In this document: piece by piece, positions 2,851 to 16,705 of the stretch | Layout of the letters: every line of letters starts with the position of its first letter | How positions within the stretch are numbered: position 1 is the first letter of the stretch | Assembly (NCBI GenBank): GCA_021160405.1 | Contig: JAGHCO010000136.1 | Span: 1 to 26,087, forward strand | Origin: Candidatus Aerophobota bacterium | GTDB taxonomy: Bacteria; Aerophobota; Aerophobia; Aerophobales; JAGHCO01 | Reading direction: 5' to 3' | Length of the DNA: 26,087 nt | Made by a program: the position numbers and the translations under genes | The notes under the pieces: model-generated | What the model saw: only the letters and a program-made list of their open reading frames with translations | Told to the model about the DNA's origin: nothing | Database searches by the model: none

Positions 2851-3773
2851 AAGAAGAAATTGAGCGAAGCTTAACAAAAGATATGCAAGTTGGAGGTCAG
2901 GCTGTTATAGAGGGTGTAATGATGCGCTCTCCAGAATATGTTTCTGTTGCTGTGCGAAAGGCTAACGGAGAGATTTTAGTTAAAAGGGACCCTTACGTAT
3001 CTCTTTTAAAAAGGTATAAATTTTTAAATATTCCCATAGTTAGAGGAGTAGTAGTTTTAATTGAAACTTTATATATTGGAATAAAGACTCTCACCTTTTC
3101 TGCCGATGTAGCTATTCAGGAAGAAGATGAGGAGGTAGTGGCCAATCCAAAAAAAGAAAAAAAGAGGGAAATTTTTACTACTTTATGGTTAATTCTTACA
3201 GTTTTTCTTGGTGTAGCTCTTGCCCTTCTACTTTTCTTTTATTTACCTTTGATTTTAACTGGTTTTTTAAAAATCCAACAGGGTTTTTTATTTACTCTTA
3301 TTGAGGGATTGATAAGAATAACAATTTTTTTTATTTATCTTTGGCTAATAACTCAGTGGAAAAGTATGAGAAGAATATTTGAGTATCATGGGGCAGAACA
3401 TAAGAGCATTTTTACTCTTGAGGCGGGTGAGGAACTTATTCCAGAAAATGCCAGAAAGTATTCCACTCATCATCCAAGATGCGGAACTAACTTTCTTTTG
3501 ATAGTGATGATAGTAAGCATAGCAGTGTTTATCTTTTTCCCAAGACCTTATACTTTGATGGACCGGTTAATTAGATTTCTTTTTGTTCCCTTAATTGCTG
3601 GTATATCCTATGAGTTAATAAAAATATGCGGTAAAAAGAGAAATAATAAATTGGTAAGAGCCTTAGCTGCCCCTGGTTTATGGCTGCAAAGATTAACCAC
3701 CAAAGAGCCAGATGACGAGCAGCTTCAGGTAGCTATAGCAGCTTTAAAAAGCTCATTAAGCAAAGAGAATTAA
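2847..3773 (+). CDS. DUF1385 (YqhQ-like) membrane protein, putative metal-dependent enzyme
   Basis: GGQAVIEGVMMR, YHGAEHK, HPRCGTNFL and QRLTTKEPDD motifs; several hydrophobic segments; ATGA overlap with the valS stop. Confidence 0.88.
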   Translation: MKEEIERSLTKDMQVGGQAVIEGVMMRSPEYVSVAVRKANGEILVKRDPYVSLLKRYKFLNIPIVRGVVVLIETLYIGIKTLTFSADVAIQEEDEEVVANPKKEKKREIFTTLWLILTVFLGVALALLLFFYLPLILTGFLKIQQGFLFTLIEGLIRITIFFIYLWLITQWKSMRRIFEYHGAEHKSIFTLEAGEELIPENARKYSTHHPRCGTNFLLIVMIVSIAVFIFFPRPYTLMDRLIRFLFVPLIAGISYELIKICGKKRNNKLVRALAAPGLWLQRLTTKEPDDEQLQVAIAALKSSLSKEN

Positions 3774-3925
3774 ACAGAGCTCTGAGAAAAACCCTCTTTC
3801 TTTGCTGCTCGGCGAGGTGTTTTTAAAAAGGTAAGCGGCGATCAAGAAAGATTCTAAATCCGATATAGATTATGTGCTTAAAGTTTTAGAAGAGTATAGG
3901 GATAAATTCTAATTACTATTTAGCC

Positions 3926-3987
3926 AAAGATTTACGCTGATACTTTTCTTTTGTTCATTTACATTAAACCTATCTGCGTTCATCTTT
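3926..3987. repeat. Imperfect 16-bp inverted repeat (REP-like) between the convergent DUF1385 and gcvPB genes
   Basis: aaagatttacgctgat (3926-3941) vs atctgcgttcatcttt (3972-3987): 13/16 complementary; abuts the gcvPB stop. Confidence 0.4.
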
Positions 3988-5436
3988 TTACTCTCTTTCC
4001 CATTTTATTTTTGGATTTCTATTTGCCTGTACCTCATCAAGTCTTAAAACAGGAGTTGTATGAGGAGCCTCCTTTACTAAGGAGGGATTCTCCTCTATTT
4101 CTTTTGCAATTTGCAAAAGAGTATTGATAAATACATCCAGAGTTTCCTTACTCTCTGTTTCGGTAGGCTCAATCATTAAAGCCTCCCCTACTATATGGGG
4201 GAAATAAATGGTAGGAGGATGTATTCCAAAGTCAAGAAGACGTTTGGCGATATCTAAAGTTCTTACTCCCTTTTCTCTTTTATTTTGAGCAGAAAGAACA
4301 CATTCATGCATACAGACTTCCTTGTAGGGAGAAGGGTAGTAATCTTCAAGTTTCTTCCTAATGTAATTAGCAGAAAGTATAGCATTTTCACTTACCTTTC
4401 TTAAACCCTCTTTGCCCAATATTCTTAAATAGCAGTAAGCTTTTATAACTACCCCAACATTGCCATAAAAAGATCTTACCTTTCCTATAGATTTGGGTCT
4501 TTGGTAGTTTAGCCAGTAACCATCCTCATTTTTTTCTATAGTGGGAATGGGCAAATATGGTTCAAGAGCTTTCTTTACTCCTACTGGTCCCGATCCAGGT
4601 CCTCCTCCTCCATGAGGGGTAGAAAAGGTCTTATGAAGATTAAAATGCATTATGTCAACCCCAAAATCCCCTGGTTTAGTTATACCCGTAAGGGCGTTAA
4701 GGTTAGCTCCATCAAGGTAAACAAAACCTCCTTTAGAATGAAGAATATTTGCTATATCAAGAATATTTTTTTCAAATAAACCCAGGGTATTGGGAACGGT
4801 AAGCATTATACAGGCTACTTTTTCATTTACATTTTTAGATAAATGCTTTAAATCCACCTCTCCCTCTGAATTAGACTTTATCTTTACCACTTTAAATCCT
4901 GCTAAAGAAGAGCTGGACGGGTTTGTTCCATGAGCAGAATCAGGAATAAGAATTTTATCCCTCTTTTCTTTTTTATCCTCAAAAAAGGCTTTAACCATTA
5001 ATATACTGGTGCGCTCACCATGGGCTCCTGCTGAAGGTTGAAGAGAGATTTTATCCATCCCTGATATTTTCTCTAACATCTTGCCAGTCTCATAAAGGAT
5101 GTGAAGGATTCCCTGAGTTGTGGATAAAGGCTGGTAAGGATGAAGCTCACAAAGGTGAGGAAGATTAGCTAAGGTTTCATTTATCTTAGGATTGTATTTC
5201 ATAGTGCAGGAACCTAAGGGATAAAAATTAGTATCTATACTCATATTTATTTGAGAAAGCCTGGTAAAATGGCGAACTAAATCAGGCTCGCTCACCTGAG
5301 GAAGACCTAACTCTTTCTTACGCAAGTTATTGGGAGGAATAAATTTTTTTATCTCTTCTTTCCTTAAACCAATCTCAGGCAAAGATACTGCAAATCTTCC
5401 CTTCCTGCTTTTCTCAAAGATTAAAGCTTCACTCAT
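3988..5436 (-). CDS. gcvPB: Glycine dehydrogenase (decarboxylating) subunit 2
   Basis: 482 aa. PLGSCTMKYNP, FNLHKTFSTPHGGGGPG (PLP lysine), EPTETESKETLD. Confidence 0.96.
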   Translation of the reverse strand: MSEALIFEKSRKGRFAVSLPEIGLRKEEIKKFIPPNNLRKKELGLPQVSEPDLVRHFTRLSQINMSIDTNFYPLGSCTMKYNPKINETLANLPHLCELHPYQPLSTTQGILHILYETGKMLEKISGMDKISLQPSAGAHGERTSILMVKAFFEDKKEKRDKILIPDSAHGTNPSSSSLAGFKVVKIKSNSEGEVDLKHLSKNVNEKVACIMLTVPNTLGLFEKNILDIANILHSKGGFVYLDGANLNALTGITKPGDFGVDIMHFNLHKTFSTPHGGGGPGSGPVGVKKALEPYLPIPTIEKNEDGYWLNYQRPKSIGKVRSFYGNVGVVIKAYCYLRILGKEGLRKVSENAILSANYIRKKLEDYYPSPYKEVCMHECVLSAQNKREKGVRTLDIAKRLLDFGIHPPTIYFPHIVGEALMIEPTETESKETLDVFINTLLQIAKEIEENPSLVKEAPHTTPVLRLDEVQANRNPKIKWERE

Positions 5437-6778
5437 TTACCTCTCCCAATAAAGAAATTAATTTATCCATTTCCTCCTTAGTTCTTTTTTCAGTGGTACA
5501 TAACAGAAGGTGGTTTTTAAGCTCAGGATAAAATCTTCCCAAATCCAGTCCTCCTAAAATTTTTTCTTCTAAAAGTTTTTGATTGATCTTTTTAGAAGAA
5601 ATAGGTGCTTTTACTACAAATTCTTTAAAAAAGGGAGCAGAAAAGGGAGATGAGTATCCGGGGAGCTTTTTTATTTTTTCTTTTAAATAATGGGAATTTT
5701 TTAAACAGAGCATCGCTACCTTTTTTAACCCTTCCTCTCCTAAGCAGGAAAGATAAATACAGGCTCTCAAAGCATTTAGATTTTGGTTGGTGCAAATATT
5801 GGAGGTAGCTTTTTCTCTTCTTATATGTTGTTCCCTGGTTTGAAGAATAAGAGTAAACCCTCTTTCTCCCCTTTTATCTTTAGCCTCTCCTACAATTCTT
5901 CCCGGCATTTGACGCAGGAATTCTTTGCGGGTAGTAAAAATTCCCAAACATTCTCCTCCCAGGTAGGGAGGACTGCCAAGAGCTTGTCCTTCTGCCACAG
6001 CAATGTCCGCATTGTACTGTCTGGGAGGGGATAAAAGGCCCAAAGATACGGGGTCGCAACTTACAATATAAAGGGAGCCGAATTTATGGACAATTTTTTC
6101 TATCTGGTTTGTTTTTTCCAGATATCCAAAAAAGTTGGGATTTTGAACAATAACACCTGCTATACTCTCATCTATTTCATCTTGTAGTAGGTTAAGATCC
6201 AGGGTTCCCTCAGAAGTGTAAGGTATTTGAATTAGCTTTATCCCTAAAGGTTTTGTGTAAGTTGAAAGGACCTGATAGTACTCTGGATGCAAGCTTTTAG
6301 CTACTAAAAATTTTTCTCTTTTTCTAATGCGATAGGCCATAAGAGCTGCCTCTGCCAGTGAAGTTGCTCCATCATACATAGAGGCATTGGATACATCCAT
6401 CTGGAAAAGATTACAAATGAGAGTTTGATACTCATAAATAGCCTGCAGGGTTCCTTGAGAAGCCTCAGCCTGATAGGGAGTGTAAGAGGTATAAAATTCT
6501 GAGCGAGAAGCTAAGTGCTCTACTACCGCAGGAACAAAATGATCGTATATACCTCCTCCCAAGAAGGAGATGCATTCCTCTAAGGAAGAGTTTTGTAAGG
6601 AAAGTCTTTTTACCTCTCTGGTAAGCTCCATTTCCGATATACCAGAGGGAAGATTCAAGGGAGAAGTGAGACGAATTTCCTTTGGAACAGTAATTAGCTC
6701 CTCTATTGATTTCACTCCTATTTCAGCTAACATTTGTTGTTGATCTTTTAAGGTATGAGGAATGTATGGTATATCCAT
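5429..6778 (-). CDS. gcvPA: Glycine dehydrogenase (decarboxylating) subunit 1
   Basis: 449 aa. FLGGGIYDH, EFYTSYTPYQAEASQG, HIRREKATSNICTNQ; 8-bp overlap with gcvPB. Confidence 0.96.
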   Translation of the reverse strand: MDIPYIPHTLKDQQQMLAEIGVKSIEELITVPKEIRLTSPLNLPSGISEMELTREVKRLSLQNSSLEECISFLGGGIYDHFVPAVVEHLASRSEFYTSYTPYQAEASQGTLQAIYEYQTLICNLFQMDVSNASMYDGATSLAEAALMAYRIRKREKFLVAKSLHPEYYQVLSTYTKPLGIKLIQIPYTSEGTLDLNLLQDEIDESIAGVIVQNPNFFGYLEKTNQIEKIVHKFGSLYIVSCDPVSLGLLSPPRQYNADIAVAEGQALGSPPYLGGECLGIFTTRKEFLRQMPGRIVGEAKDKRGERGFTLILQTREQHIRREKATSNICTNQNLNALRACIYLSCLGEEGLKKVAMLCLKNSHYLKEKIKKLPGYSSPFSAPFFKEFVVKAPISSKKINQKLLEEKILGGLDLGRFYPELKNHLLLCTTEKRTKEEMDKLISLLGEVNE

Positions 6779-6808
6779 TTTTCTCCTTTTGTTTTTTTGG
6801 CAAACCCA

Positions 6809-7917
6809 TTATCGTCTGCTTTCCTTTTTATATATCCTGGGAACTCTTTTGCCTATACCACATACAAAATAGTGCCTATCTTTGAAACAAGTTCATCTAC
6901 CGAAATTTGAGCATTCTCCTGCCTACCAAACAAACTACCTCATCGTCTACCCTTACATCTGGAATATGACTAACATCTACCAGATTCATATCCATACATA
7001 TCGTTCCCACTACAGGAGCTCTTTTTCCTTTAATAAGTACTTCTCCTTTATTGGATAGGGCTCTGGTGTATCCATCAGCATAGCCTACGGGAAAAGTGGC
7101 AATTATACTTTTTCCTTGGTAGTAAAAATTCTACCGTAGCTAAGACTTACTCCTGCAGGCACAGTTTTTAGATAAGCTACCTCAGTCTTAAATCTCATAA
7201 CAGGCTTAAGGTTAATGGTATGATTTACCTTAGTTGAAGGATATAGTCCATAAAGCATAATCCCTGGTCTTACCAGATCAAAATAAGAGGAATGAATGTT
7301 CAGAATTGCCGCACTGTTATCAGCATGCCTTATAGGGATGTGAATTCTCTCTTCTTCTAAATTAGCAATTACTTTTTTTAAACCTTTTGATCTGTAGTTC
7401 AGTAAAACTTTTATCTTTATCTGCTACCGAAAAATGAGTAAAAATACCTTCTATTTCAATACCTTTCAAGTGAGAAATTTCCTTAACAAAGTCTGTTATT
7501 TTCTCTGGGGTAACTCCCAATCGTCCCATCCCTGTATCTACCTTTATTGAACTTTGACAGTTTGACCCTGGGATTTAGCCTCAGCCGACAAGGCCTTAAC
7601 TAGCTCCATATTACAAACAGCCTGAGATAGCTTATATTTCACTACCTGTTGAACTTGTGCTGGTGGAGATAATCCGAAAACTAAAATTAGTGATTGAATT
7701 CCAGCCTTACGTAACTCCGCCGCTTCCTCAAGTGTAGCCACAGCTAAGCACTGAGCCCCATTTTTTAAGACGATTTTGGCTACCTCTACTGCTCCGTGCC
7801 ATAGCCGTTTGCTTTCACTACTGCCATTATCTTTACTTTATCACCGATTCTCTTGCGAATCTCACTGATATTATAGGTGATATTATCTAAATTAATTTCC
7901 GTCCTTGTAGGTCTCAT
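6809..7917 (-). pseudogene. alr: Alanine racemase pseudogene (about 6 frame-disrupting lesions)
   Basis: Manual translation across frames recovers MRPTRTEINL, MAVVKANGYG(H)GA, VATLEEA, (H)IKVDTGMGRLG, THFS, NSAA, VRPGIMLYG, SYG, VGYADGY, ICMDM, RVPRIY. Indels near 7799, 7547, 7376, 7111, 6933 and 6867. Confidence 0.93.
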
Positions 7918-7960
7918 TTCCCGCCCTTTAAATCCAGAATTTTTAACTTCTGAGGTATTC

Positions 7961-8635
7961 TTAGTACTTTTCAGCCAGCTTTGGATCATAGGGTGCTTTT
8001 CTTTCAATACAGCCTTTTCTGGGACAGAGTTGACAACTGTGAAATTTAATTTCAGTGGGGAAGTAAATTCCAGAGACAGACTTTTTAGGAATCATCAGGA
8101 AACTATTAGTTAAACTCACTCCTATGATTTTTTGACTGTCGCCAAAGATAGAGAATAACTCTTTTTGTTGAGTGATGGGCCAGTCTTCTAAAGAACCTGG
8201 ACTCATAGTGGAGATCTGTCCAAGTTTGTATTTTCTCTTGAGATGCGTTTCCAGATACCTCTGGATATGATCTAAAGCTAAATCCGCTATTCTCTCCAAA
8301 TAGTATTGCTTAAGTAAATCTTTCATTGAGGATGCCTTATCCTCTAATTTCTTTCCAACGGTAATAATGTAAGGAAAAACTCTTTCCAATTTATCCAGAT
8401 TTTTTCTAAGAACCTTGCTTTTAAATTGGACTTTCCCAATATCTAAGGTTATATCTGTTTTATTTTCTACAAAAGCTATCTTATAGACAGCTTTTGGGTT
8501 TATTAAATTAGCAGATAAATCGATAAGTTCTTTTATAAGTTCCCTTTGATTTGCTTGCATCTTATCATTTATCCTGAGATATTTAGATATCTCCTCAAAA
8601 CTAAATTTGATAGGGATGTTACTTAATACTTCCAT
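7961..8635 (-). CDS. Stand-alone B12-dependent methionine synthase activation (AdoMet-binding) domain-like protein
   Basis: 224 aa. FPYIITVG, SPGSLEDWPITQQKELF, IGVSLTNSFLMIPKKSVSGI resemble Met_synt_B12 stand-alone proteins; ends in CQLCPRKGC. Confidence 0.75.
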   Translation of the reverse strand: MEVLSNIPIKFSFEEISKYLRINDKMQANQRELIKELIDLSANLINPKAVYKIAFVENKTDITLDIGKVQFKSKVLRKNLDKLERVFPYIITVGKKLEDKASSMKDLLKQYYLERIADLALDHIQRYLETHLKRKYKLGQISTMSPGSLEDWPITQQKELFSIFGDSQKIIGVSLTNSFLMIPKKSVSGIYFPTEIKFHSCQLCPRKGCIERKAPYDPKLAEKY

Positions 8636-8665
8636 TCTGTTTTCCTTTTTTACACCTGAGCTGTT

Positions 8666-8820
8666 TTAGAGCATATTTTGAATGGTATAGATAATTTTTT
8701 TCTATTTTCCCTTGTTAGCTGAAGTAATTCTATATCTTTTCTTTGTCTTATTTTTTCCAAAAATTCATTTTCATAGATTGGTATAGTAGCTATGACTTTA
8801 TTTGGAGTATCAAGAACTTG
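8666..8820 (-). pseudogene. C-terminal remnant of a THEP1/NTPase_1-type nucleoside triphosphatase
   Basis: VLDTPNKVIATIPIYENEFLEKIRQRKDIELLQLTRENR resembles the THEP1 C-terminus as I recall it (VVATIP...KEIRR....LIELTPENR). No Walker A, own start or RBS is present. Confidence 0.65.
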
Positions 8821-8827
8821 TAAGTCC

Positions 8828-9223
8828 TTATTTTTCCTTTTCCTTTTTTGTCCATTCCTCATAATCCTCAGAGTCCATTAAGTTATTTAGCTCCTCTGGA
8901 TTTTGTAACTTTACTTTAATCATCCAACCTTTACCATAAGGGTCTTTGCTTATTAAATCTATTTGCTGAGACAGTTCCTCGTGAACCTCTACTACTTCAC
9001 CGCTTACAGGAGAGTTTAAATCGGAAACAGCTTTAACTGACTCTATAACACCAAAAGGGGAGCCTTGAGTTATTTTTTCTCCCACCGAGGGAAGTTCTAT
9101 ATATACAAGGTCAGTAAGCTGCTTTGCTGCAAAATCTGTAATTCCAACAGTGCCTACATCATTCTCAACTTTTATCCACTCATGAGTTTTGGTATACTTT
9201 AAGTCCTTAGGGTACATTTTCAT
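8828..9223 (-). CDS. gcvH: Glycine cleavage system H protein
   Basis: 131 aa. YTKTHEW, GITDFA, ESVKAVSD (lipoyl lysine), DPYGKGW; GGAGG RBS. Confidence 0.97.
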   Translation of the reverse strand: MKMYPKDLKYTKTHEWIKVENDVGTVGITDFAAKQLTDLVYIELPSVGEKITQGSPFGVIESVKAVSDLNSPVSGEVVEVHEELSQQIDLISKDPYGKGWMIKVKLQNPEELNNLMDSEDYEEWTKKEKEK

Positions 9224-9238
9224 AAACCTCCGGTAATT

Positions 9239-12200
9239 TTAAATATTTTCTTCAGGAAAACGAGACAGGACTACAGCTTCCTGAGGGAGAACTGTTCTAT
9301 CCCCTTCATTCAAGTTTCTTGCAGGCTTTTCTGAGAATCTTCCCCGAGGAAGAGGAAATATTGCAATCTCTTCACTTTCCTGAATCCTTTTATCAACATA
9401 AGCTAAGCCAACTTGAAAATCTTCTGCTAAAGTGCAACTGGTAACTTTTCCAACATATTTGCCTCTTTTATCTACTACAGGGTCATGCGGTCTTATCATC
9501 CTACCATAGCTTGATTTTAATTTAAACCTTATAATTTTCTTTTCCCTTCCTCTCTCTTTTTCCAATAAGATTTCTCTTCCAATAAAAAAGGGTTTATGAA
9601 ACTTAACAAAAGCTCCATAACCTGCTTCAATAGGGTCAATTTTGTACCTTCCGTCAAGTTCATGTCCATGTAAAGGAAGACCTGCCTCCACTCTGGTTGA
9701 ATCTCTTGCCCCCAGGCCACATGGTTTAACTTTAAATTCCCTACCTTTTTCCAAAATCAAGTTCCAGATGAATGGAGCATCCTTAGGATGAAGGTAAAGC
9801 TCATAGCCTATATCTTCCCCGGTATAACCTGTGCGAGAGATTATCATTTTTACTCCAGCAATCTCTCCTTCTATAAATTCATTCTTCTCCAGTCTTGCTA
9901 TCTCTTCTTGTAATTTTTTATTTTCTGCTAATTTTTGCAAGATTAAAACTGATTTAGGTCCCTGAAGAGCTATATCTACTTTTTGTTCCTCTCCCGTTGA
10001 TTCATCTTTTAAATTTTTAATATTTACCGCGCTTGCAATTTCTCTTGGTGGATAACTTTTATCTATAATATAGCGTTTAGAATTAACTGCCTTTAACCAG
10101 CTTAATACTTTTTCCTGATTGGCGGCATTATCAACAATCATATATCTTTGCTTTCCGCGGCAATAAATCATAATATCATCTATTACATTGCCATCAGGGT
10201 CAAGGAGGAAGCTATACTGAGATTGTCCAATCTTTATCCATCGAACATAGTTGGTAGTAACGACATCTAAAAAGTCGGCGGCATTTTCTCCACTAACTTC
10301 CAAAATTCCCATATGACTTACATCAAAGAGCCCTGCCGCCTCTCTCACTGCTCTGTGTTCTTCAGAGATACTTTTATAATAAATGGGCATTTCCCATCCA
10401 GCAAACTGAGTGAATTTTGCTCCCAATTTTAAATGTTCCTCGTATAAAAAAGATCTTTTAGTTTTTTTCTCTTTCTCCTGATAGTGAAACTCCTCTTTTT
10501 TTACCTCTAGGGGTATATTATTTTGACTAAATAGTTTTTGTCCGATAAAATAAGGTTTGGATAGGTCAAAATAAGAGAGAAAATTTTTATACAAAGATAA
10601 ACCATCAATTTTACCTCTCTCTTCAGAGGAAATTTTTTCCTTTAAATGAACATGCTCTCCCCTTTTAATATCAGCCAGATTAACTTTTAAGGTTTCACTT
10701 AACTTTTGTAAAGTTTCCTCTTTCGTTTCTGTTAAATCTTCCACCACCACTGGCCCCTGAATTTTAGCAAATATATCATCGGGATCAAAAATAATATACC
10801 CATCTGATAAACCTTCCAGCCAAAGCTTTACCCTCTGAGTTTGAGACAGGGTAGTTGCAACTAAATAACGATCTTTTCCTTTATTATCAGGAGGGAGATG
10901 AACAATTAAAACATCATCAATAAGCTTCCCTTCAGCGTCTAAGAAAAAAGAGGAAGCAAACTCACCTGGCTTAAGATTAGCTATATTAGCAGTAGATAAT
11001 TCTTGCAGGAAAGGCTTTGCTCTTTCTCCACTTACTTTTAGGACTCCTATATTGCTCTCTTCCCTGTTTGATTCTTGTTTAAGTAAATCAGGCTCTTTTT
11101 GAGAAAAGGCAAATTTTGGTATTTCAGCTTCTTTTTTCTGGATTAGCTCTGTTACCTCTTTTCTTACCTCCTCAATTATATCAAGGTTTATCTTCCCCCT
11201 TGGTAGATCTCCCGTTAATCCTTCATAAATAAAGGGGTGAATGTTAGTTATAACCCTGTGAATAAGCTCTGCTATTTTCTCCATTTCCTCTTTTCCAAAT
11301 CCTCGCTGAGTAGCCCAGGGAGTTCCCAATCTAATAGCACTTGCCTCAGCAGCAGTTTCATCTCCAGGGATAGTATTTTTGTTAACTACCAGGCCACAAA
11401 GATCCAAAATGCGGGCAGCCATTTCTCCTTTTAAAGGAAAGCCGGTTTTTGTTTTAATAGCATTTAAATCAACCAATAAAAGGTGAGTATCAGTTCCTCC
11501 ATAAGCTATTTTCAGCCCCTTTTTTTCTAATGATGAGGCTAATACTTTAGCATTTTCAACTATTTTTTCCTGGAGTTTTTTAAACTCCTCTGTCCCGGCA
11601 ATTTTAAATGTAGTTGCTATAGCTGCAATTGTATTGATGTGAGGACCTCCCTGTTCCCCGGGAAAAACAGCCTCATCTATTAGTTTAGCTTTTTCTCTAT
11701 CGGTAGTTAAGATAACTGCTCCGCGAGGACCACAGAGGGTTTTGTGAGTGGTAAAAGTTATAACATCAGCAAAGCCGACTGGACTTGGATATATCCCAGC
11801 AACTACCATTCCTGCAACATGGGCAATATCAGCAAATAAAAGCGCCCCTACACTATCAGCAACTTCTCTAAACTTTCCCCAATCAACACTCCAGGGGTAA
11901 GCACTGTAACCTGCAATTATTATCTTGGGTTTGTATTGATAGGCAAGGTTTTTAATAGCATCATAGTTAAGTTTCCCACTTGTTAGATCAGCCTCATAGG
12001 GGATGACCTTGTAGTATTTGCCAGAACGGTTAAATTCACTCCCGTGGGTAAGATGTCCTCCATAAGATAGGGACATACCCATAATTGTATCACCTGGTTT
12101 AATAAAAGCCGCATAAACAGCATTATTTGCTGCCGCCCCTGATAAAGGTTGGACATTAACAAAAATTTTATCGGCACTCACCTTATCTGTGGCAAAACAC

Positions 12201-12592
12201 TTAGCTATTCTTCTTTGAGCCAGCGATTCAACAAAATCAGCGAACTCAACTCCTTTGTAAAAACGTCTATCAGAGTAGCGTCTATAGTTGGCAAGCTGAT
12301 AGTTATAATCAAGCAACACTTTTTCATCATTTTCTTCACTCATTCTTGGGGAAGGATATCCTTCAGCATAGAGGTTGCTAAAAGGTGATGATAAAGCTTC
12401 TCGAACAGGTTTTGGGCAGATACTCTCCGAAGGTATAAGAATAATTTTTTGTATCTGCCGAGCTTTCTCAAAATCAATAATAAGGCTTATGTCGGGGTCT
12501 ACTTTAGAAAGTTCCGCCTCAAGATAATATGAATAATCTCTCCCCTTACCCTTAAATTTTTCCTTTGATAAAAGACCTTTTTTTTCTTCCAT
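9239..12592 (-). CDS. glyA-gcvT: Fusion of serine hydroxymethyltransferase (about aa 25-485), a partial GcvT folate-binding domain (about aa 513-620) and a full GcvT aminomethyltransferase (about aa 710-1117)
   Basis: SHMT motifs: YAEGYP, NVQP, GGHLTHG, TTHKTL, GGTDTHL, IRLGTP. GcvT motifs: EHRAVR, GLFDVSHMG, SRTGYTGE, GLGARD, EAGLPLHG. One uninterrupted ORF. Confidence 0.93.
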   Translation of the reverse strand: MEEKKGLLSKEKFKGKGRDYSYYLEAELSKVDPDISLIIDFEKARQIQKIILIPSESICPKPVREALSSPFSNLYAEGYPSPRMSEENDEKVLLDYNYQLANYRRYSDRRFYKGVEFADFVESLAQRRIAKCFATDKVSADKIFVNVQPLSGAAANNAVYAAFIKPGDTIMGMSLSYGGHLTHGSEFNRSGKYYKVIPYEADLTSGKLNYDAIKNLAYQYKPKIIIAGYSAYPWSVDWGKFREVADSVGALLFADIAHVAGMVVAGIYPSPVGFADVITFTTHKTLCGPRGAVILTTDREKAKLIDEAVFPGEQGGPHINTIAAIATTFKIAGTEEFKKLQEKIVENAKVLASSLEKKGLKIAYGGTDTHLLLVDLNAIKTKTGFPLKGEMAARILDLCGLVVNKNTIPGDETAAEASAIRLGTPWATQRGFGKEEMEKIAELIHRVITNIHPFIYEGLTGDLPRGKINLDIIEEVRKEVTELIQKKEAEIPKFAFSQKEPDLLKQESNREESNIGVLKVSGERAKPFLQELSTANIANLKPGEFASSFFLDAEGKLIDDVLIVHLPPDNKGKDRYLVATTLSQTQRVKLWLEGLSDGYIIFDPDDIFAKIQGPVVVEDLTETKEETLQKLSETLKVNLADIKRGEHVHLKEKISSEERGKIDGLSLYKNFLSYFDLSKPYFIGQKLFSQNNIPLEVKKEEFHYQEKEKKTKRSFLYEEHLKLGAKFTQFAGWEMPIYYKSISEEHRAVREAAGLFDVSHMGILEVSGENAADFLDVVTTNYVRWIKIGQSQYSFLLDPDGNVIDDIMIYCRGKQRYMIVDNAANQEKVLSWLKAVNSKRYIIDKSYPPREIASAVNIKNLKDESTGEEQKVDIALQGPKSVLILQKLAENKKLQEEIARLEKNEFIEGEIAGVKMIISRTGYTGEDIGYELYLHPKDAPFIWNLILEKGREFKVKPCGLGARDSTRVEAGLPLHGHELDGRYKIDPIEAGYGAFVKFHKPFFIGREILLEKERGREKKIIRFKLKSSYGRMIRPHDPVVDKRGKYVGKVTSCTLAEDFQVGLAYVDKRIQESEEIAIFPLPRGRFSEKPARNLNEGDRTVLPQEAVVLSRFPEENI

Positions 12593-13779
12593 TATTTTTC
12601 AACTGCTTTTTTAATTCTTTTCAGACCCTCTAATATACCTTTTTTAGAGGTTGCGTAGGATAATCTTATGTATTCCTCTTTTTCTCCTTCGTTTCTACAC
12701 CCAAAGCAGCTCCTGCTTAGCACTGCCACATCTGCCTCATAAAGAAGGTATTTTTGAAGTTCTTTGGAGCCTTTGAGATTAAGATTTTGGCAAACCTCAG
12801 TCACATTAGGGTATATATAAAAAGCCCCCTTTGGTTTAATGCATCTTATTCCTTTAATTTCATTTAATCCTTCCCAGATAATCTCTCGTCTTTCTTTAAA
12901 CTCCTTTACCATAGATAAAGAAGAATCCTGTGGACCTTCCAGAGCTTCAACTCCTGCATATTGAATAAAGGTATTTGTGCAGGAGTTAATATTAGTCTGG
13001 ATTCTGGTAATATCTTGCGCTAAATCTTTCCTCATTACTCCAAATCCTAACCTCCAGCCAGTCATAGCATAGGTTTTTGAAAAACCATCTATTAAAATTG
13101 TTCTTTCTTTCATCCCTGGAATAGATGCTATGCTTTTAAATTCTGTATCATAAATAATTTGAGAATAAACCTCATCTGATACAATCCAGATATTTTTTTC
13201 CTTAGATATTTCGGCAATCATCTTTAGATCATCTTGGGTTAAGATACCTCCTGTAGGATTTTGGGGAGAGTTAATAATTATCATTTTTGTTTTGTCAGTT
13301 ATCTTTGCCTCTAATTGCTCGGGGTCAAAACTAAATTCTTTTTCTTCTAAAAGAGGAAGAGGAACAGGTTTTGCTCCAACAAAGTTTATGAACGATTCAT
13401 AAATTGGGAAACCCGGATTTGGATATATTACCTCATCTCCTTCATTAACACAGGCGAGAATACCATAGGCAATAATTGGTTTTGCTCCTGGGGTAATTAC
13501 CACCTCTTCAGGGTCTACTTCTATACCTCTGGTTTTAGAAATATACCGGGCAACTGATTCTCTTAAGGAAGGAACACCAGATGAGGGAGAGTAATGAGTA
13601 TACCCATCTTTAATTGCCTTTACTCCTGCATCTTTAATGTTTTGCGGTGTATCAAAATCAGGTTCTCCAATGGCAAAGCTTATAATATCTTTTCCTTCTG
13701 CTTTTAGTTTGTTCACCTCTGCCAAAACTTCAAAGGCAGTTTCAGTTCCTAACCTCTTCATCCTTTTTGCTTTTTCCAT
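12592..13779 (-). CDS. PLP-dependent class I/II aminotransferase (aspartate aminotransferase-like)
   Basis: 395 aa. IGEPDF, NSPQNPTG, SDEVY, GFSKTYAMTGWRLG (PLP lysine); TAATG coupling to the glyA-gcvT start. Confidence 0.92.
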   Translation of the reverse strand: MEKAKRMKRLGTETAFEVLAEVNKLKAEGKDIISFAIGEPDFDTPQNIKDAGVKAIKDGYTHYSPSSGVPSLRESVARYISKTRGIEVDPEEVVITPGAKPIIAYGILACVNEGDEVIYPNPGFPIYESFINFVGAKPVPLPLLEEKEFSFDPEQLEAKITDKTKMIIINSPQNPTGGILTQDDLKMIAEISKEKNIWIVSDEVYSQIIYDTEFKSIASIPGMKERTILIDGFSKTYAMTGWRLGFGVMRKDLAQDITRIQTNINSCTNTFIQYAGVEALEGPQDSSLSMVKEFKERREIIWEGLNEIKGIRCIKPKGAFYIYPNVTEVCQNLNLKGSKELQKYLLYEADVAVLSRSCFGCRNEGEKEEYIRLSYATSKKGILEGLKRIKKAVEK

Positions 13780-13794
13780 ATTTTACCTTCTTTC

Positions 13795-13812
13795 ATACCA
13801 AAGATATATTAA
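13795..13812 (+). promoter_or_regulatory. Candidate operator ATACCAA-N4-ATATTAA, copy 1
   Basis: ataccaaagatatattaa lies between the predicted -10 and the aminotransferase start; 14/18 identical to the copy at 14542-14559. Confidence 0.45.
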
Positions 13813-13822
13813 AGATATTTAA

Positions 13823-13851
13823 TTTATATCACATAAAAAAAATTTTGTCAA
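13823..13851 (-). promoter_or_regulatory. Putative sigma70 promoter for the aminotransferase-glyA/gcvT-gcv operon
   Basis: On the - strand: TTGACA (13851-13846), 17 nt, TATAAA (13828-13823), with a TGn extension. Confidence 0.55.
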
Positions 13852-13875
13852 GATGTAAATCAAAATCTTTATTAT

Positions 13876-14487
13876 TTATAACTGAGCTTTTATTTTCTCT
13901 ATAAAGAATTCAGCGTGGGCAGCTAATATGTTAGCAGATGAATCCTTATCTTTTTTTTCAATGGCAGAAATTAACCTCTGAAAGTCCTCTCTGAAGGTAT
14001 ACACGAAGGATTTGTCCTTTGGCAAAATCCACAATCTTAAAACTCTATCTCTTAGGGCTTGTAAAATACCGTAAAGCACTTGATTATGAGTTGCCATATT
14101 TATTAAATCGTGGAATTTAGAATCTAATTTTATTAATTCTTTCTCATCCAAATTGTCTTTGAACTTATTAAGAAGGTTTTTCATTTTCTCTATTTCATCT
14201 TTTGTTGCTCTTTCGGCTGCTAATTTACCAGCTATCTTTATAAGAGGTCTTCGCAGTTCCATCACATCAATAAGTTCTTTAAATTCAACAGAGCTAACAT
14301 GAACTCCACTATAGGGGACTATCTCAACTAAGCCTTCAGCATCAAGACGAACCAAAAGTTCTCTTAAAGGGGTTCTTCCTATGTTAAATTCCTTCATTAG
14401 CTCTTTTTCCTTTAATACCTGGCCTGGTTTGTAATCACCTAATACTATTTTCTCCCTTAAAATAGAGTAAACGCTGTTTTTATCCAA
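13876..14487 (-). CDS. GntR-family (FadR/FCD) transcriptional regulator
   Basis: 203 aa, TTG start after GGGAGG. wHTH segment (KELMKEFNIGRTPLRELLVRLDAEGLV); FCD-like LDSKFHDLI...NQVL...AH. Confidence 0.9.
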   Translation of the reverse strand: MDKNSVYSILREKIVLGDYKPGQVLKEKELMKEFNIGRTPLRELLVRLDAEGLVEIVPYSGVHVSSVEFKELIDVMELRRPLIKIAGKLAAERATKDEIEKMKNLLNKFKDNLDEKELIKLDSKFHDLINMATHNQVLYGILQALRDRVLRLWILPKDKSFVYTFREDFQRLISAIEKKDKDSSANILAAHAEFFIEKIKAQL

Positions 14488-14533
14488 ATTATTTCCTCCC
14501 TATAGTTTGTTAAAGGCAAGACTTATATATCTC

Positions 14534-14562
14534 TTGCCAAGTTAATATCCACTTGGTATAAT
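14534..14562 (+). promoter_or_regulatory. Putative strong sigma70 promoter for the transketolase
   Basis: TTGCCA (14534-14539), 17 nt, TATAAT (14557-14562), with an extended -10 TGn. Confidence 0.6.
14542..14559 (-). promoter_or_regulatory. Candidate operator ATACCAA-N4-ATATTAA, copy 2
   Basis: Reads ataccaagtggatattaa on the - strand; overlaps the spacer and -10 of the transketolase promoter. Confidence 0.45.
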
Positions 14563-14563
14563 A

Positions 14564-14592
14564 TTAATATATTATTAATGTATTTTTGTCAA
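14564..14592 (-). promoter_or_regulatory. Possible promoter for gntR
   Basis: TTGACA (14592-14587 on -) followed by an AT-rich -10 region; the exact hexamer is ambiguous. Confidence 0.35.
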
Positions 14593-14597
14593 AGTCT

Positions 14598-14632
14598 GTC
14601 CTCTCATCGGAAAAGAGGACTTTATCTTTTTT
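14598..14632 (+). terminator. Hairpin plus T-rich tract in the transketolase leader (possible attenuator)
   Basis: gtcctct-catcggaaa-agaggac followed by tttatctttttt. Confidence 0.3.
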
Positions 14633-14671
14633 CTGAGAGTAAGTTTAAGAAGGGGAAAAGGAGGTTTATAA

Positions 14672-16705
14672 ATGCCCATTATAGATTCTAAGACAGGAAA
14701 AGTAAGAAGGAATTATACAGTTGAGGAGTTAGTAGAAAAGGCAAGAGAGATGAGAGCATACAGTATGGTTGCTCTTACTGCAGCTTCCTCAGGGCATACT
14801 GGTGGAACCATGTCAATTATGGATATTGCTGCAGCCCTTTACCTCAAAAAGATAAGACATGACCCAAAGAATCCTGAGTGGGAAGACAGAGATAGAGTTT
14901 TTTGGTCTACAGGTCATAAAGCTCCTGCCCTTTATGTAGCTTTGGGTGAGGCAGGTTATTTCCCAATAGAAGAGATAGTAAAGTTAAGGAAGCTGTGGTC
15001 TGGTTTTGAAGGTCACCCTAATAGATTAAAGCTACCAGGGGTTGAGCTTTCTGCTGGGTCCTTGGGACAAGGTTTAGGCGTAGCAGTAGGCTGTGCACTT
15101 AATGCTAAGTTAGAGGGGAAAAGTTACAGAGTTTACTGTATCAATGGGGATGGGGAGCTTGATGAGGGTTCTATTTGGGAGTCTATAATGTGCGCTGCTC
15201 ATTATAGATTAGATAATCTTGTATCTATTGTTGATAGAAATAATTTGCAAATTGATGGTCCTACAGAAAAAGTGATGAGGTTGGAATCTATTGTTAATAA
15301 ATGGAGAGCTTTTGGATGGAACACTATTGAAATTGATGGTCATAATATAAGTGAGATTCTAAACGCTTTAGATGAAGCTGAGAAGGTAAAAGGAAAACCA
15401 ACAGTGATAATCGCTAAAACAACTAAAGGAAAAGGTGTCTCCTATGCTGAGAATGTAGTTGGTTACCATGGCATTCCTCCAAAGGATGGAAGGTCAGGAA
15501 AAGAATCGTTAGATAAGGCTCTGGGAGATATAGGCGATCCTAAATTTACTAAAGAGAAGATAGATAAACTTCTAAAAATTGCCAATGATTATCAAAGAGA
15601 AGTTGATAAAAAGATAGATGCTTCTTTGCCTAAGTTTAGTAGAAATTACTGGTGGAATTCAACTGATAAGATGAAGGTTAAGATGGATGCTACCAGAAAT
15701 GGCTTTGGTAGGGCTATAGAAAAATTGGGTGATGATAAAAGAGTTGTTGCTTTGGGAGCTGATATTACAAATTCAATAAGAATGAATAAGTTCTATGCTA
15801 ATCATCCCGAGAGAAAAAATAGATTTTTTAGTATAGGTATAGCTGAGGCTAATATGACTTTGGTAGCATCTGGTTTAGCTAAGGAGGAAAAAATACCATT
15901 TATTGGCTCTTATGGGGTCTTTATAACTGGTAGAAATTGGGACCAGTTAAGAACTACTGTATGTTACAATAACTTTAATGTAAAGATTGCCGATGCTCAC
16001 GGTGGTATCTCAGTTGGAAAGGATGGAGCTACCCATCAGGCACTGGAGGAAATAACTAACATGTGTTATCTACCCAATATGCGTATGGCTATCCCCTGTG
16101 ATTCAGTTGAAACAGAAAAGGCAACTAAGGCAATAGCCTCTATTGATGGGCCTTGTGTAGTTAGGTATGCAAGGGAGGCAACTCCCATAGTAACCACCAA
16201 TAATACTCCCTATAAGTTTGGTTTAGCAAACATAATAAGGTATAGAGGTGAGAGGGAGAATTTTATAGAAGCATTTGAGATAAAGCTTTCCACTGACTAT
16301 ACCTCAGAAAACGAGGATTTAAGTATAATTTCCTGTGGACCTATGGTCCCAGAGGCGATGAGGGCGGCTTATATTTTAAGAGAAGAGTTTGGAATCGAGG
16401 CAAGAATACTAAATGTGCATACAGTTAAACCAATTGATAAGGAGGCAATTGTAAGAGCAGCGCAGGAAACAGGTATTATAATCACAGCGGAAGAGCATCA
16501 GGTTGGTGGTTTTGGAAATATTGTAGCAGGAGTGATAGCAAAGGGTAAAAGATACACTTCACCATTGCTGATGGATATGGTTGGGGTAGAGGATAAATTT
16601 GGTGAATCTGGAGCACCATGGGAGTTAATGAAAGCATTTGGTCTAACTGCTGAGCACATTGCAAAAAGGGCTAAAGAGTTGTGGGATAAGAAAAGTGATG
16701 CGTGA
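14672..16705 (+). CDS. tkt: Transketolase-family enzyme with N-terminal TPP-binding and C-terminal subunits in one chain
   Basis: 677 aa. SGHTGG, DRVFWSTGHKAP, FEGHP, GSLGQG, GDGELDEG...N TPP motif, GIAEANM, DGATHQALEE, EEHQVGG; AGGAGG RBS. Confidence 0.88.
   Translation: MPIIDSKTGKVRRNYTVEELVEKAREMRAYSMVALTAASSGHTGGTMSIMDIAAALYLKKIRHDPKNPEWEDRDRVFWSTGHKAPALYVALGEAGYFPIEEIVKLRKLWSGFEGHPNRLKLPGVELSAGSLGQGLGVAVGCALNAKLEGKSYRVYCINGDGELDEGSIWESIMCAAHYRLDNLVSIVDRNNLQIDGPTEKVMRLESIVNKWRAFGWNTIEIDGHNISEILNALDEAEKVKGKPTVIIAKTTKGKGVSYAENVVGYHGIPPKDGRSGKESLDKALGDIGDPKFTKEKIDKLLKIANDYQREVDKKIDASLPKFSRNYWWNSTDKMKVKMDATRNGFGRAIEKLGDDKRVVALGADITNSIRMNKFYANHPERKNRFFSIGIAEANMTLVASGLAKEEKIPFIGSYGVFITGRNWDQLRTTVCYNNFNVKIADAHGGISVGKDGATHQALEEITNMCYLPNMRMAIPCDSVETEKATKAIASIDGPCVVRYAREATPIVTTNNTPYKFGLANIIRYRGERENFIEAFEIKLSTDYTSENEDLSIISCGPMVPEAMRAAYILREEFGIEARILNVHTVKPIDKEAIVRAAQETGIIITAEEHQVGGFGNIVAGVIAKGKRYTSPLLMDMVGVEDKFGESGAPWELMKAFGLTAEHIAKRAKELWDKKSDA

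Follow-up and report, generated by a model that had tools for sequence, protein, structure and literature searches.

Glycine cleavage genes of the Bacillus subtilis type form a gcvT-gcvPA-gcvPB operon preceded by a glycine riboswitch, which at gcv operons is an ON switch. In the photorespiratory and serine-cycle route, GDC and SHMT are followed by a serine aminotransferase, hydroxypyruvate reductase and glycerate kinase; the known serine-pyruvate and serine-glyoxylate aminotransferases are, to our knowledge, all of class V. Hydroxypyruvate is a substrate common to GRHPR-like dehydrogenases and to transketolase, and we know of no other 2-oxo acid derived from serine or glycine that serves as a transketolase donor. 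Transketolase assays and biocatalysis have for decades relied on it as their standard artificial donor. In synthetic transaminase-transketolase cascades serine donates the amine, and the hydroxypyruvate formed from it donates the ketol unit; our literature search found no paper assigning hydroxypyruvate a physiological role as transketolase donor. Specialised catabolic transketolases are known, for example apulose-4-phosphate transketolase, in D-apiose catabolism, and sulfo-TK, for sulfoquinovose.

The 26,087-nucleotide stretch analysed here (the window) is best read as carrying a glycine/serine-catabolic module of an uncultured Aerophobetes-type sediment bacterium. Gene identities were set by matches to Pfam and NCBIfam profiles. 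The last gene of the minus strand operon, gcvPB (glycine dehydrogenase (decarboxylating) subunit 2, 3988..5436; NF003346, 735 bits for a cut-off of 441), overlaps by 8 nt with gcvPA (subunit 1, 5429..6778; NF001696, 644 bits for a cut-off of 364). The lipoyl carrier protein is encoded by gcvH (8828..9223, minus strand; PF01597, 156 bits; NF002270, 171 bits), and the ESVKA lipoyl-lysine motif is visible in its translation. Next to it, on the same strand, lies a gene for a single chain of 1117 residues (9239..12592), in which SHMT, a partial GcvT-like domain and a full GcvT follow each other. Both recognised enzymes exceed their NCBIfam cut-offs: the SHMT part (residues 106-444) scores 441 bits with NF000586 (cut-off 335) and has the PLP motif THKTLCGPRG, and the GcvT part (residues 710-1077), which is the T-protein of this glycine cleavage system (GCS), scores 354 bits with NF001567. 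The P-protein (alpha and beta), the H-protein and the T-protein (NF001567/TIGR00528) are all above cut-off. At least 569 species genomes encode a homologous SHMT-GcvT fusion. The L-protein, dihydrolipoyl dehydrogenase, is not encoded in the window, and PF02852 was not found in genome G000, which is only 72.7% complete; it is present, unlinked, in 27 of the 31 genomes of the order. The first structural gene of the operon, overlapping the fusion by 1 nt, encodes a class-I, AspAT/ArAT-like aminotransferase (12592..13779, minus strand; PF00155, 246 bits). The GCS components are those of the B. subtilis-type operon, but the T-protein is fused to SHMT and an aminotransferase heads the operon. A further difference is that a transketolase gene is attached to it, divergently in the window and inside the operon in relatives.

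A preliminary description of this DNA had seen on the minus strand one tightly coupled run of genes, including alr and a gene for a B12 activation protein. The genes of the run are real, except that alr (about 6830..7902, minus strand) turned out to be a frameshifted pseudogene. It was delimited by tblastn pieces and ORF fragments: a search with the intact alanine racemase of contig L003, a 91%-related contig, matched five successive frame segments (-3, -2, -1, -3, -2). At the DNA level, the remnant and the intact alr of that contig share 88% identity, and six of the nine indels listed from other metagenomes are located inside it. The second gene (7961..8635, minus strand) encodes a protein of 224 aa resembling the MetH activation domain, although the PF02965 match (29 bits for a cut-off of 25) covers only residues 155-193, that is, profile positions 211-248 of 273. 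It is absent from the gcv operons of relatives. Its orthologues, found in 17 of the 31 genomes of the order, are at other loci, and also occur in genomes devoid of the fusion. This gene is a lineage-specific insertion outside the module core, and neither it nor alr is conserved as a part of the module. Nor is the ackA-pta-PFOR adjacency of the window kept in relatives, even in a 91% identical one.

Upstream of the aminotransferase gene, the minus strand region 13780..13875 contains a promoter, read from the sequence as TTGACA, 16 nt and TATAAA, and a conserved TTTAATATAT block. It is followed by a gene for a regulator of the GntR family, FadR (FCD) subfamily (13876..14487, minus strand), with an N-terminal winged-helix GntR domain (PF00392, 62.5 bits) and a C-terminal FCD ligand domain (PF07729, 67.2 bits). 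On the plus strand, a promoter-like site for the transketolase gene (14534..14562; TTGCCA, 17 nt, TG-TATAAT) matches the consensus at 11 of 12 positions. Both promoters carry conserved blocks in close relatives: the one of the transketolase gene is kept in four of them, and in one of these, L018, a perfect FadR-type palindrome, TGGTATAGATACCA, lies over the -10 box of the aminotransferase promoter. The operator proposed earlier to be shared by gntR and the transketolase gene is not distinguishable from chance: 12/16 is the closest agreement of any 16-mer shared by the two intergenic regions, and the best match in shuffled sequence averages 12.6. In eight related loci, including close relatives, RF00504 glycine riboswitches are found directly upstream of the aminotransferase gene. 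None was detected in the window, either at the gathering threshold or at E<=1, and the GntR/FCD gene occupies the place that the riboswitch holds in these other relatives. The best reading is that the regulator replaces the riboswitch in this genome, with the transketolase gene running divergently from it.

The transketolase (14672..16705, plus strand) is a single chain with the domains Transketolase_N (PF00456, 191 bits), Transket_pyr (PF02779, 111 bits) and Transketolase_C (PF02780, 82 bits), and scores 630.7 bits with the equivalog NF004559 (cut-off 488). Residues H42, H82, H115, D160, N190, H266, E392, H443, D451 and H455 were aligned with H37, H77, H110, D155, N185, H258, E366, H416, D424 and Q428 of human TKT, and these ten catalytic and ThDP-Mg positions are invariant among 35 aligned sequences. 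The phosphate-binding residues R342, S368, H443 and R501 (human R318, S345, H416 and R474) are kept in 32 to 35 of the 35, depending on the residue. As every catalytic and phosphate-binding residue of the human enzyme is retained, phosphorylated acceptors are to be expected. The three-domain architecture and the ThDP/Mg motif are likewise those of the EC 2.2.1.1 references (human TKT, 3MOS/4KXU; split transketolase of Carboxydothermus hydrogenoformans, 6YAK/6YAJ), and compared to the split enzyme the window protein is a single-chain version with an inserted linker of about 50 aa. No feature of the active site sets it apart from an ordinary pentose-phosphate enzyme. What differs from the references is that it belongs to a clade of its own (support 100/100), as an accessory second or third transketolase that tracks an aminotransferase and gcv operon. 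It is the second type in its genome; nearly all of the order has the other type (NF004556, 1007 bits in G000), which is likely to be the housekeeping enzyme. Apulose-4-phosphate transketolase and sulfo-TK set a precedent for an additional paralogue that serves a single catabolic pathway from within its operon, but these are of the split type, use unusual sugar donors and have no link to amino-acid metabolism.

The preliminary description had predicted that the transketolase would be syntenic with the cluster in relatives, and had set this beforehand as a test of its proposal. The prediction survived: in 12 of the 18 Aerophobales genomes having this transketolase, and in many metagenome contigs, the gene is beside the SHMT-GcvT fusion. 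Two arrangements were observed. In many relatives the order, behind a glycine riboswitch, is aminotransferase, fusion, transketolase, gcvH, gcvPA, gcvPB and lplA; the transketolase gene lies between the fusion and gcvH with gaps of 29-183 nt in eight genomes of the survey and in nine contigs. In the window, contig L003 and three genomes, it is divergent and adjoins the aminotransferase and fusion genes, with or without gntR. A survey of co-occurrence, as suggested earlier, found the transketolase in 18 of the 21 genomes of the order bearing the fusion and in none of the 10 that lack it. One contig, L120, has the transketolase gene next to gcvH without the fusion. It could be argued that the transketolase gene came to its place when a mobile aminotransferase-transketolase pair was rearranged, and that its adjacency to gcv genes is metabolically meaningless, given that arrangements vary between families and that three Aerophobales genomes hold the orthologue away from the gcv locus, with a LarA-like gene. 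We think this quite improbable: there are two independent arrangements, spacing is tight inside a riboswitch-controlled operon, co-occurrence with the fusion is strict, sequences are conserved at 78-92%, and the pair persists across distant lineages.

In such distant lineages, an orthologue of the class-I aminotransferase is directly beside a single-chain transketolase, without gcv genes, at 12 of 21 loci and in both gene orders (39-62% identity for the aminotransferase, 52-65% for the transketolase), as opposed to 0 of 36 loci with a split transketolase. In the transketolase tree, both basal subclades consist of aminotransferase-linked members, and the gcv-embedded clade arises from among them. 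As read from these comparisons, the pair is older than the operon. Conceivably, its two enzymes are of housekeeping type and merely travel together, the locus supplying building blocks for nucleotide and aromatic amino-acid synthesis without a shared metabolite: C1 units, glycine and serine from GCS and SHMT, amino groups from a general aspartate or aromatic aminotransferase, and pentose and erythrose phosphates from the transketolase. The solved structures nearest to the aminotransferase are indeed the aromatic and aspartate aminotransferases of P. horikoshii (1DJU, 1GD9), with prephenate aminotransferase also among the close ones, and the active site of the transketolase is fully canonical. 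One distant pair adjoins a transaldolase gene, an ordinary pentose-phosphate context, others have housekeeping genes around them, for instance tsaD and glycosyltransferases, and archaeal aromatic-biosynthesis clusters contain transketolase genes. Against this, the order already has its near-universal other transketolase while the operon-borne one tracks the fusion, the sampled pairs had no genes for aromatic or purine biosynthesis next to them, and a glycine riboswitch as the control element points to the removal of surplus glycine, not to anabolism. We consider supply of building blocks unlikely.

The reading that we favour, tentatively and at somewhat less than even probability, is a catabolic route from glycine to sugar phosphates, through serine and hydroxypyruvate. 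It builds on what is observed: the identities of the genes, active sites that are intact, a linkage that is conserved, co-occurrence and, in relatives, control by a riboswitch. GcvP, GcvH and the GcvT part of the fusion would oxidise one glycine to CO2, NH3 and methylene-THF, and the SHMT part, on the same polypeptide, would combine this C1 unit with a second glycine into serine. The aminotransferase would then convert serine to hydroxypyruvate; pyruvate/alanine is its likely amino acceptor pair, since relatives have an alanine dehydrogenase gene in the operon. Hydroxypyruvate would finally serve the dedicated transketolase as a decarboxylating, practically irreversible ketol donor. Glyceraldehyde-3-P, ribose-5-P or erythrose-4-P, as the aldose phosphate acceptor, would take up the C2 unit, and carbon of glycine and serine would thereby enter the pentose-phosphate pool. 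What we infer is which substrate the aminotransferase uses, that hydroxypyruvate is the link, and in which direction flux runs. Membership of the class-V AGXT/SGAT family of serine aminotransferases was ruled out for the aminotransferase, as Aminotran_5 gave only 19 bits, below cut-off. We nevertheless propose it to be a serine:2-oxoacid aminotransferase, and it may work like a serine aminotransferase though outside that family.

Up to transamination, this route would run as the photorespiratory and serine-cycle one does, with GCS and SHMT first. It would differ in the class of the aminotransferase (I, not V) and in its sink, a transketolase replacing the reductase and decarboxylative C2 transfer replacing reduction to glycerate. 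A GRHPR-like reductase is found in sister operons: contigs L001 and L002, whose aminotransferase and fusion are 84% and 78% identical to those of the window, have no transketolase and carry a 2-hydroxyacid dehydrogenase gene after gcvPB, and many Chloroflexota loci likewise have a GRHPR-like reductase gene. A gene resembling glyoxylate/hydroxypyruvate reductases (NF009714, about 400 bits) adjoins the fusion at no fewer than 14 other loci. A GRHPR-like dehydrogenase in the place of the transketolase fits the proposed shunt, hydroxypyruvate being the only such donor that we know of. These fusion-adjoining dehydrogenases score best as glyoxylate reductases, and could also be taken to mean that the aminotransferase acts on glycine, exchanging glycine/glyoxylate with alanine/pyruvate, so that the operon would link glyoxylate, alanine and glycine and the transketolase would have an indirect role. 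The alanine dehydrogenase, alanine racemase and amino-acid ABC transporter genes in the operons of three relatives are in line with this. Glyoxylate, however, is no transketolase donor, and so a glycine aminotransferase would leave unexplained both the adjacency of the pair without gcv genes and the position of the transketolase gene within the operon; we regard this possibility as improbable.

The direction of flux deserves a similar comment. GCS and SHMT are reversible, and the enzymes might operate as an assimilatory reductive glycine pathway: GCS in reverse would form glycine out of CO2, NH3 and methylene-THF, SHMT would turn it into serine, and the aminotransferase-transketolase pair would commit serine to sugar phosphates, an anabolic outlet whose irreversible decarboxylating step would pull flux forward. 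A pterin-binding, CdhD-like gene is present on the contig of one relative, which would agree with such a pathway. A glycine riboswitch as the inducing element is more in keeping with an excess of glycine, the route loses carbon, and the operons of relatives include genes for amino-acid uptake and alanine catabolism; an assimilatory direction is therefore very unlikely. The loss of one carbon in three as CO2 also counts against the catabolic route that we favour, as do the AspAT/aromatic subgroup of the aminotransferase, the ordinary active site of the transketolase, the distant pair beside a transaldolase gene and the three Aerophobales genomes whose orthologue is away from the gcv locus. Another role for the transketolase could be in charging GcvH, whose lipoyl arm would receive the dihydroxyethyl (glycolaldehyde) unit bound to ThDP; a comparable transfer by two-component enzymes resembling transketolase yields glycolyl-ACP in some natural-product pathways. 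Its gene is immediately upstream of gcvH in the riboswitch-type arrangement, and the fusion-less contig L120 keeps these two genes together. Yet no acyltransferase (E2) or ACP partner is present, pairs of other lineages lack gcvH, and the acceptor pocket for phosphate is intact, which leaves this transfer hardly credible.

Synteny, co-occurrence and the pair of distant lineages thus stand in favour of the shunt from glycine and serine proposed by the preliminary description, whereas the shared operator, the B12 activation protein and alr no longer contribute to it. Its alternative, a transketolase cleaving an amino-sugar or sugar-acid, found no support in the gcv-linked loci. A broader proposition, to which we give slightly less weight than to the route itself, is that aminotransferase and single-chain transketolase constitute a natural two-enzyme "serine shunt", widespread in uncultured anaerobes, which in Aerophobetes merged with a channelling SHMT-GcvT fusion and GCS into one glycine-induced pathway. 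The two reaction types and their order would be those of the synthetic cascades, but the latter are engineered, with omega-transaminases and non-phosphorylated acceptors, while here the gene pair is natural and the acceptors are probably phosphorylated. No paper describing such a route was found in our literature search. A conserved glycine-controlled operon with transketolase and aminotransferase beside the glycine-to-serine enzymes would supply hydroxypyruvate with a physiological role as donor. If true, amino-acid carbon would have a new way into sugar phosphates without gluconeogenesis from pyruvate, of relevance for models of carbon flow in subsurface sediment communities and for engineered reductive-glycine pathways.

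Other outlets for serine were also considered. We agree with the preliminary description that genes for serine dehydratase and hydroxypyruvate reductase are absent from the window. Of the 31 genomes surveyed in the order, just 4 yielded an Fe-S serine dehydratase, which speaks for the proposed route; G000, at its 72.7% completeness, was not among them. A glycerate kinase and a 2-hydroxyacid dehydrogenase are encoded elsewhere in G000, so the standard hydroxypyruvate route may coexist with the one proposed here.

The transketolase of the window (Tkt, 677 aa, 14672-16705, + strand; NF004559, 631 bits) faces away from a - strand run composed of a GntR/FCD regulator gene (13876-14487), a class-I aminotransferase gene (AT, 12592-13779), a 1117-aa SHMT-GcvT'-GcvT fusion (9239-12592), gcvH (8828-9223), gcvPA (5429-6778) and gcvPB (3988-5436), all called from an ORF listing combined with Pfam and NCBIfam scans. 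Genome G000, to which the window belongs, encodes three transketolase types: the window Tkt, an enzyme on contig C48 and a split pair on contig C220. The C48 enzyme (3047-4975, 642 aa; NF004556, 1007 bits) adjoins a LacI regulator and a sugar epimerase, its type was found across nearly the whole order, including genomes without the operon Tkt, and it is likely the housekeeping enzyme of G000. On this contig (L004:1-7591) the epimerase neighbour is a hydroxypyruvate-isomerase-like TIM-barrel protein, and on the opposite strand, some 1.3 kb away from the transketolase, there is a gene for a MOFRL glycerate kinase.

Tkt and the fusion were each searched in the 30 other genomes of the order; the counts out of 31 include G000. 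The window Tkt has orthologues, 78-88% identical to it, in 18 of the 31 genomes, all of them among the 21 that carry the fusion, and in none of the 10 fusion-less genomes. Related genomes do not count as independent samples here, yet Tkt and fusion also covary within families f4 and f6. The preliminary description had joined the divergent transketolase to a glycine/serine cluster, and its synteny with that cluster was recovered in relatives: the two genes are adjacent on the same contig in 12 genomes, in two arrangements, read from gene tables and from our own annotation of fetched loci. In type A, tkt lies within a co-directional operon ordered AT, fusion, Tkt, gcvH, gcvPA, gcvPB, lplA, with gaps of 29-183 nt flanking tkt (full in genomes G003, G014, G020, G024 and G028 and in loci L008, L113-L117, L132 and L143; partial in G001 and G027). 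In type B, Tkt is divergent from GntR-AT-fusion-gcvH-(ABC-alr-AlaDH)-gcvPA-gcvPB, as in the window, its 91%-identical relative L003, G011 and G019, and, with the same layout lacking GntR, G007. On one contig (L120:8001-10248) a gcvH fragment comes straight after a Tkt of 81% identity and the fusion is absent upstream; this may be what a rearrangement has left of the in-operon type.

In three genomes (G015, G018 and G022) the Tkt orthologue lies away from the gcv locus, always behind a LarA-like gene. Genes for an HpcH-type aldolase and for an Fe-alcohol dehydrogenase stand with it in G015 and G018; in G015 they are joined by genes for a 2-hydroxyacid dehydrogenase and for a xylose-isomerase-like TIM-barrel protein. 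The placement of Tkt behind this gene of the nickel-pincer racemase family was noted in three Aerophobales genomes, at L009:972-11946, L012:5390-10992, L011:7949-11407 and L118. The L009 operon holds genes for GntR/FCD, a DHDPS-family aldolase, an HpcH aldolase, a cyclase, a 2-hydroxyacid dehydrogenase, an Fe-ADH, a xylose-isomerase-like TIM-barrel protein and an MFS transporter, and resembles a pathway for a hydroxy acid or a sugar acid terminating in Tkt.

With Tkt as query, a metagenome scan gave 31 single-chain relatives of full length, alongside 36 loci of the split type. An AT orthologue (39-62% identity) stood directly beside Tkt in 12 of 21 single-chain loci (Tkt identity 52-75%), in both gene orders and with gcv genes absent; it was found in none of the 36 split-type loci. 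Elsewhere the neighbours of single-chain Tkts were xylose-isomerase-like TIM-barrel proteins, HpcH aldolases, 2-hydroxyacid dehydrogenases and, once, a class-V aminotransferase; a transaldolase was found in one locus, and some AT-Tkt pairs stand in housekeeping or pentose-phosphate contexts. The single-chain Tkts formed a clade in a maximum-likelihood tree (100/100 support), which a branch of 1.04 substitutions per site separates from the split types. Both basal subclades of this clade are filled by AT-linked Tkts, with the gcv-embedded Aerophobetes clade nested within, in a tree whose rooting is uncertain because the outgroup branches are long. Judged from these gene neighbourhoods, the AT-Tkt pair appears to be the conserved core of the module, and the simplest history would start from an old AT-Tkt pair that, in Aerophobetes, received the fusion and gcvH-P as insertions. 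We regard a functional coupling of Tkt with the AT/gcv module as probable.

What could pass between these enzymes is suggested by their chemistry. Transketolases take their ketol unit from 2-ketoses whose C1 hydroxymethyl group is free, and hydroxypyruvate, the oxo acid of serine, is to our knowledge the sole suitable 2-oxo acid derived from any proteinogenic amino acid. The fusion, GcvP and GcvH would convert two glycines into serine, the proposed substrate of AT; the hydroxypyruvate formed would then serve as C2 donor for Tkt, towards sugar phosphates. Aligned with human TKT and 34 relatives, Tkt has kept all catalytic residues, the ThDP/Mg site and the four phosphate-binding residues, and no special-donor signature was seen in this alignment. 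By every sequence criterion it is a genuine transketolase, which should bind phosphorylated partners. Since hydroxypyruvate is accepted by transketolases in general, this canonical sequence fits the proposed route without discriminating between models. With hydroxypyruvate as donor the transketolase reaction is practically irreversible, CO2 being released (PMC11997939).

Related operons that lack the transketolase bear on the same metabolite. In L001 and L002, two loci whose AT and fusion are 84% and 78% identical to those of the window, Tkt is absent and gcvPB is followed by genes for a 2-hydroxyacid dehydrogenase, RidA and a class-III aminotransferase. A dehydrogenase was found beside the fusion in at least 14 of 80 fusion loci from other phyla, and the two fusion-adjacent Chloroflexota dehydrogenases that were scanned had glyoxylate/hydroxypyruvate reductase as best match (NF009714, 396-409 bits). 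Hydroxypyruvate is the substrate common to such reductases and transketolase, and the sister operons support the hydroxypyruvate link independently. The usual serine exit is the Fe-S serine dehydratase, which was detected in only 4 of the 31 genomes and not in G000 (a 1.54-Mb MAG of 262 contigs, 72.7% complete). Among the points that weaken the model, AT is of the AspAT/aromatic type, outside the class-V serine aminotransferase family, some AT-Tkt pairs stand in the housekeeping or pentose-phosphate contexts mentioned above, and G000 encodes elsewhere a glycerate kinase and a 2-hydroxyacid dehydrogenase. A complementarity between glycerate kinase and operon Tkt was also considered; most riboswitch-type genomes with in-operon tkt do lack the MOFRL glycerate kinase, but the pattern was not clean and the idea was dropped. 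The specific hydroxypyruvate mechanism is thus proposed tentatively, as a reading that may well prove wrong.

Glycine aptamers, single or tandem, were found by Rfam directly upstream of AT in seven type A loci and in the related locus L020, and score 46-72 bits where the gathering score is 32. Glycine riboswitches of gcv operons, the subject of work by Mandal et al. in 2004, are reportedly ON switches. With the riboswitch upstream of the type A operon, tkt there would belong to a glycine-induced transcript. The Rfam scan gave no glycine riboswitch in the window, L003, L018, L019, L001 or L010, loci in which the GntR/FCD gene holds the riboswitch position; in the window, other known RNAs were likewise sought and none was found.

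A promoter-like site near consensus precedes tkt (14534-14562, + strand; TTGCCA, 17 nt, TG-TATAAT) and faces the gntR promoter, and another, for the AT operon, lies between gntR and AT (TTGACA, 16 nt, TATAAA). The 18-mer proposed earlier as a GntR operator shared by the two regions did not survive comparison with shuffled sequences: the best 16-mer match between the regions, 13780-13875 and 14488-14671, was 12/16, versus a mean best of 12.6 in shuffles. Both promoters carry conserved blocks in GntR-type relatives, and in L018 a perfect FadR-like palindrome covers the AT -10 box; a GntR operator at the AT and tkt promoters is plausible on these motifs. A structured attenuator in the tkt leader, suggested by eye from a hairpin and T-run, was rejected, as its fold (z = -0.67) resembled shuffles and a terminator scan of the leader gave no match. 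The tkt leader also shows strain variation: an 8-nt insertion, AAAATGAA, is present at 14649, just upstream of the tkt ribosome-binding site, in two other metagenomes. The datasets found to contain the window sequence were sediment and vent DNA metagenomes only, with no RNA run among those listed. Together with the names given to the closest homologues, these metagenomes point to Candidatus Aerophobetes living in marine sediment or at hydrothermal vents.

Two genes counted as members in the preliminary description have to be removed from the module. The alanine racemase gene, alr, is actually a pseudogene (6830-7902, - strand), to which the intact Alr of L003 aligns across five successive frame segments. 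The remnant is 88% identical in DNA to the intact gene of L003, whereas the flanking genes reach 91-92%. Across Logan contigs of four further metagenomes, this 1.1-kb segment holds 6 of the 9 listed indels plus two internal skips; intact window genes have substitutions only, with no indel listed. The alanine racemase is decaying in place. Relative to L003, the window lineage is further marked by the loss of an amino-acid ABC transporter and of alanine dehydrogenase, and by the gain of a MetH-activation-like gene (7961-8635, - strand, 224 aa), which has been relocated to a place between gcvH and the alr remnant. The product of this gene matches PF02965 over 39 residues only and has a C-terminal Cys motif. 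Since orthologues of this supposed B12 activation protein were found in 17 of the 31 genomes at other loci, including fusion-less genomes, it is not core to the module, and a B12/methyl-transfer link through it was ruled out on the same grounds.

The window is bounded on the gcvPB side by valS (181-2850) and a DUF1385 gene (2847-3773), both on the + strand. Beyond tkt, on the - strand, come ackA, pta, the genes of a four-subunit pyruvate:ferredoxin oxidoreductase (PFOR) and an AlbA_2/Schlafen gene. Synteny with L003 ends just beyond the tkt stop codon, which makes the ackA-pta-PFOR neighbourhood incidental. A cycle from hydroxypyruvate through xylulose-5-P to acetyl-P, in which a phosphoketolase would tie Tkt to ackA-pta, was ruled out; no phosphoketolase was found in the 31 genomes of the order, the only matches being weak cross-matches to Tkt genes. 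An APC-family amino-acid permease with a C-terminal PTS EIIA-2 domain (22389-24257, - strand) is an unusual transporter-regulatory fusion.

All enzymes of the module are of known kinds, and a full-text literature search found neither the fusion nor the AT-Tkt pair described, nor any paper on glycine metabolism in Aerophobetes. The window contributes the GntR-controlled, divergent-tkt variant of the module, a view of the decay of an alanine branch (alr pseudogene, AlaDH and transporter lost) and genome-level figures for the co-occurrence of Tkt and fusion.

Fusion loci outside this pattern were also seen. In a Chloroflexota group (L029:9001-18545, L030, L048) a LarA-like gene comes after an SHMT-GcvT fusion; the operon convergent with these two genes specifies the N and C subunits of a split Tkt, together with an Fe-S/CCG-domain protein and a MOFRL glycerate kinase. 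Five Spirochaetota loci (L053, L067, L068, L075, L079) share the order fusion, 406-412-aa gene, 2-hydroxyacid dehydrogenase, gcvH, gcvPA, gcvPB. In L075, the only one scanned, the 406-412-aa gene is DUF1015 and the dehydrogenase is phosphoglycerate-dehydrogenase-like, so that this partner set appears to be of the serine-biosynthesis type, not AT-Tkt. L001 (4025-7999) and L002 (104-4078) carry a second SHMT-GCV_T paralogue of 931 aa with a Pfam AFOR_C (aldehyde:ferredoxin oxidoreductase C-terminal) match, which lies with a GFO/IDH/MocA oxidoreductase just upstream of the GntR-AT-fusion operon. Finally, in a MAG labelled Proteobacteria (L049:3-12357), gcvH-gcvPA-gcvPB, an unknown gene and the fusion are preceded by genes for a class-I aminotransferase and for a split Tkt-like pair, whose strong divergence shows in a PF00456 score of only 34 bits.
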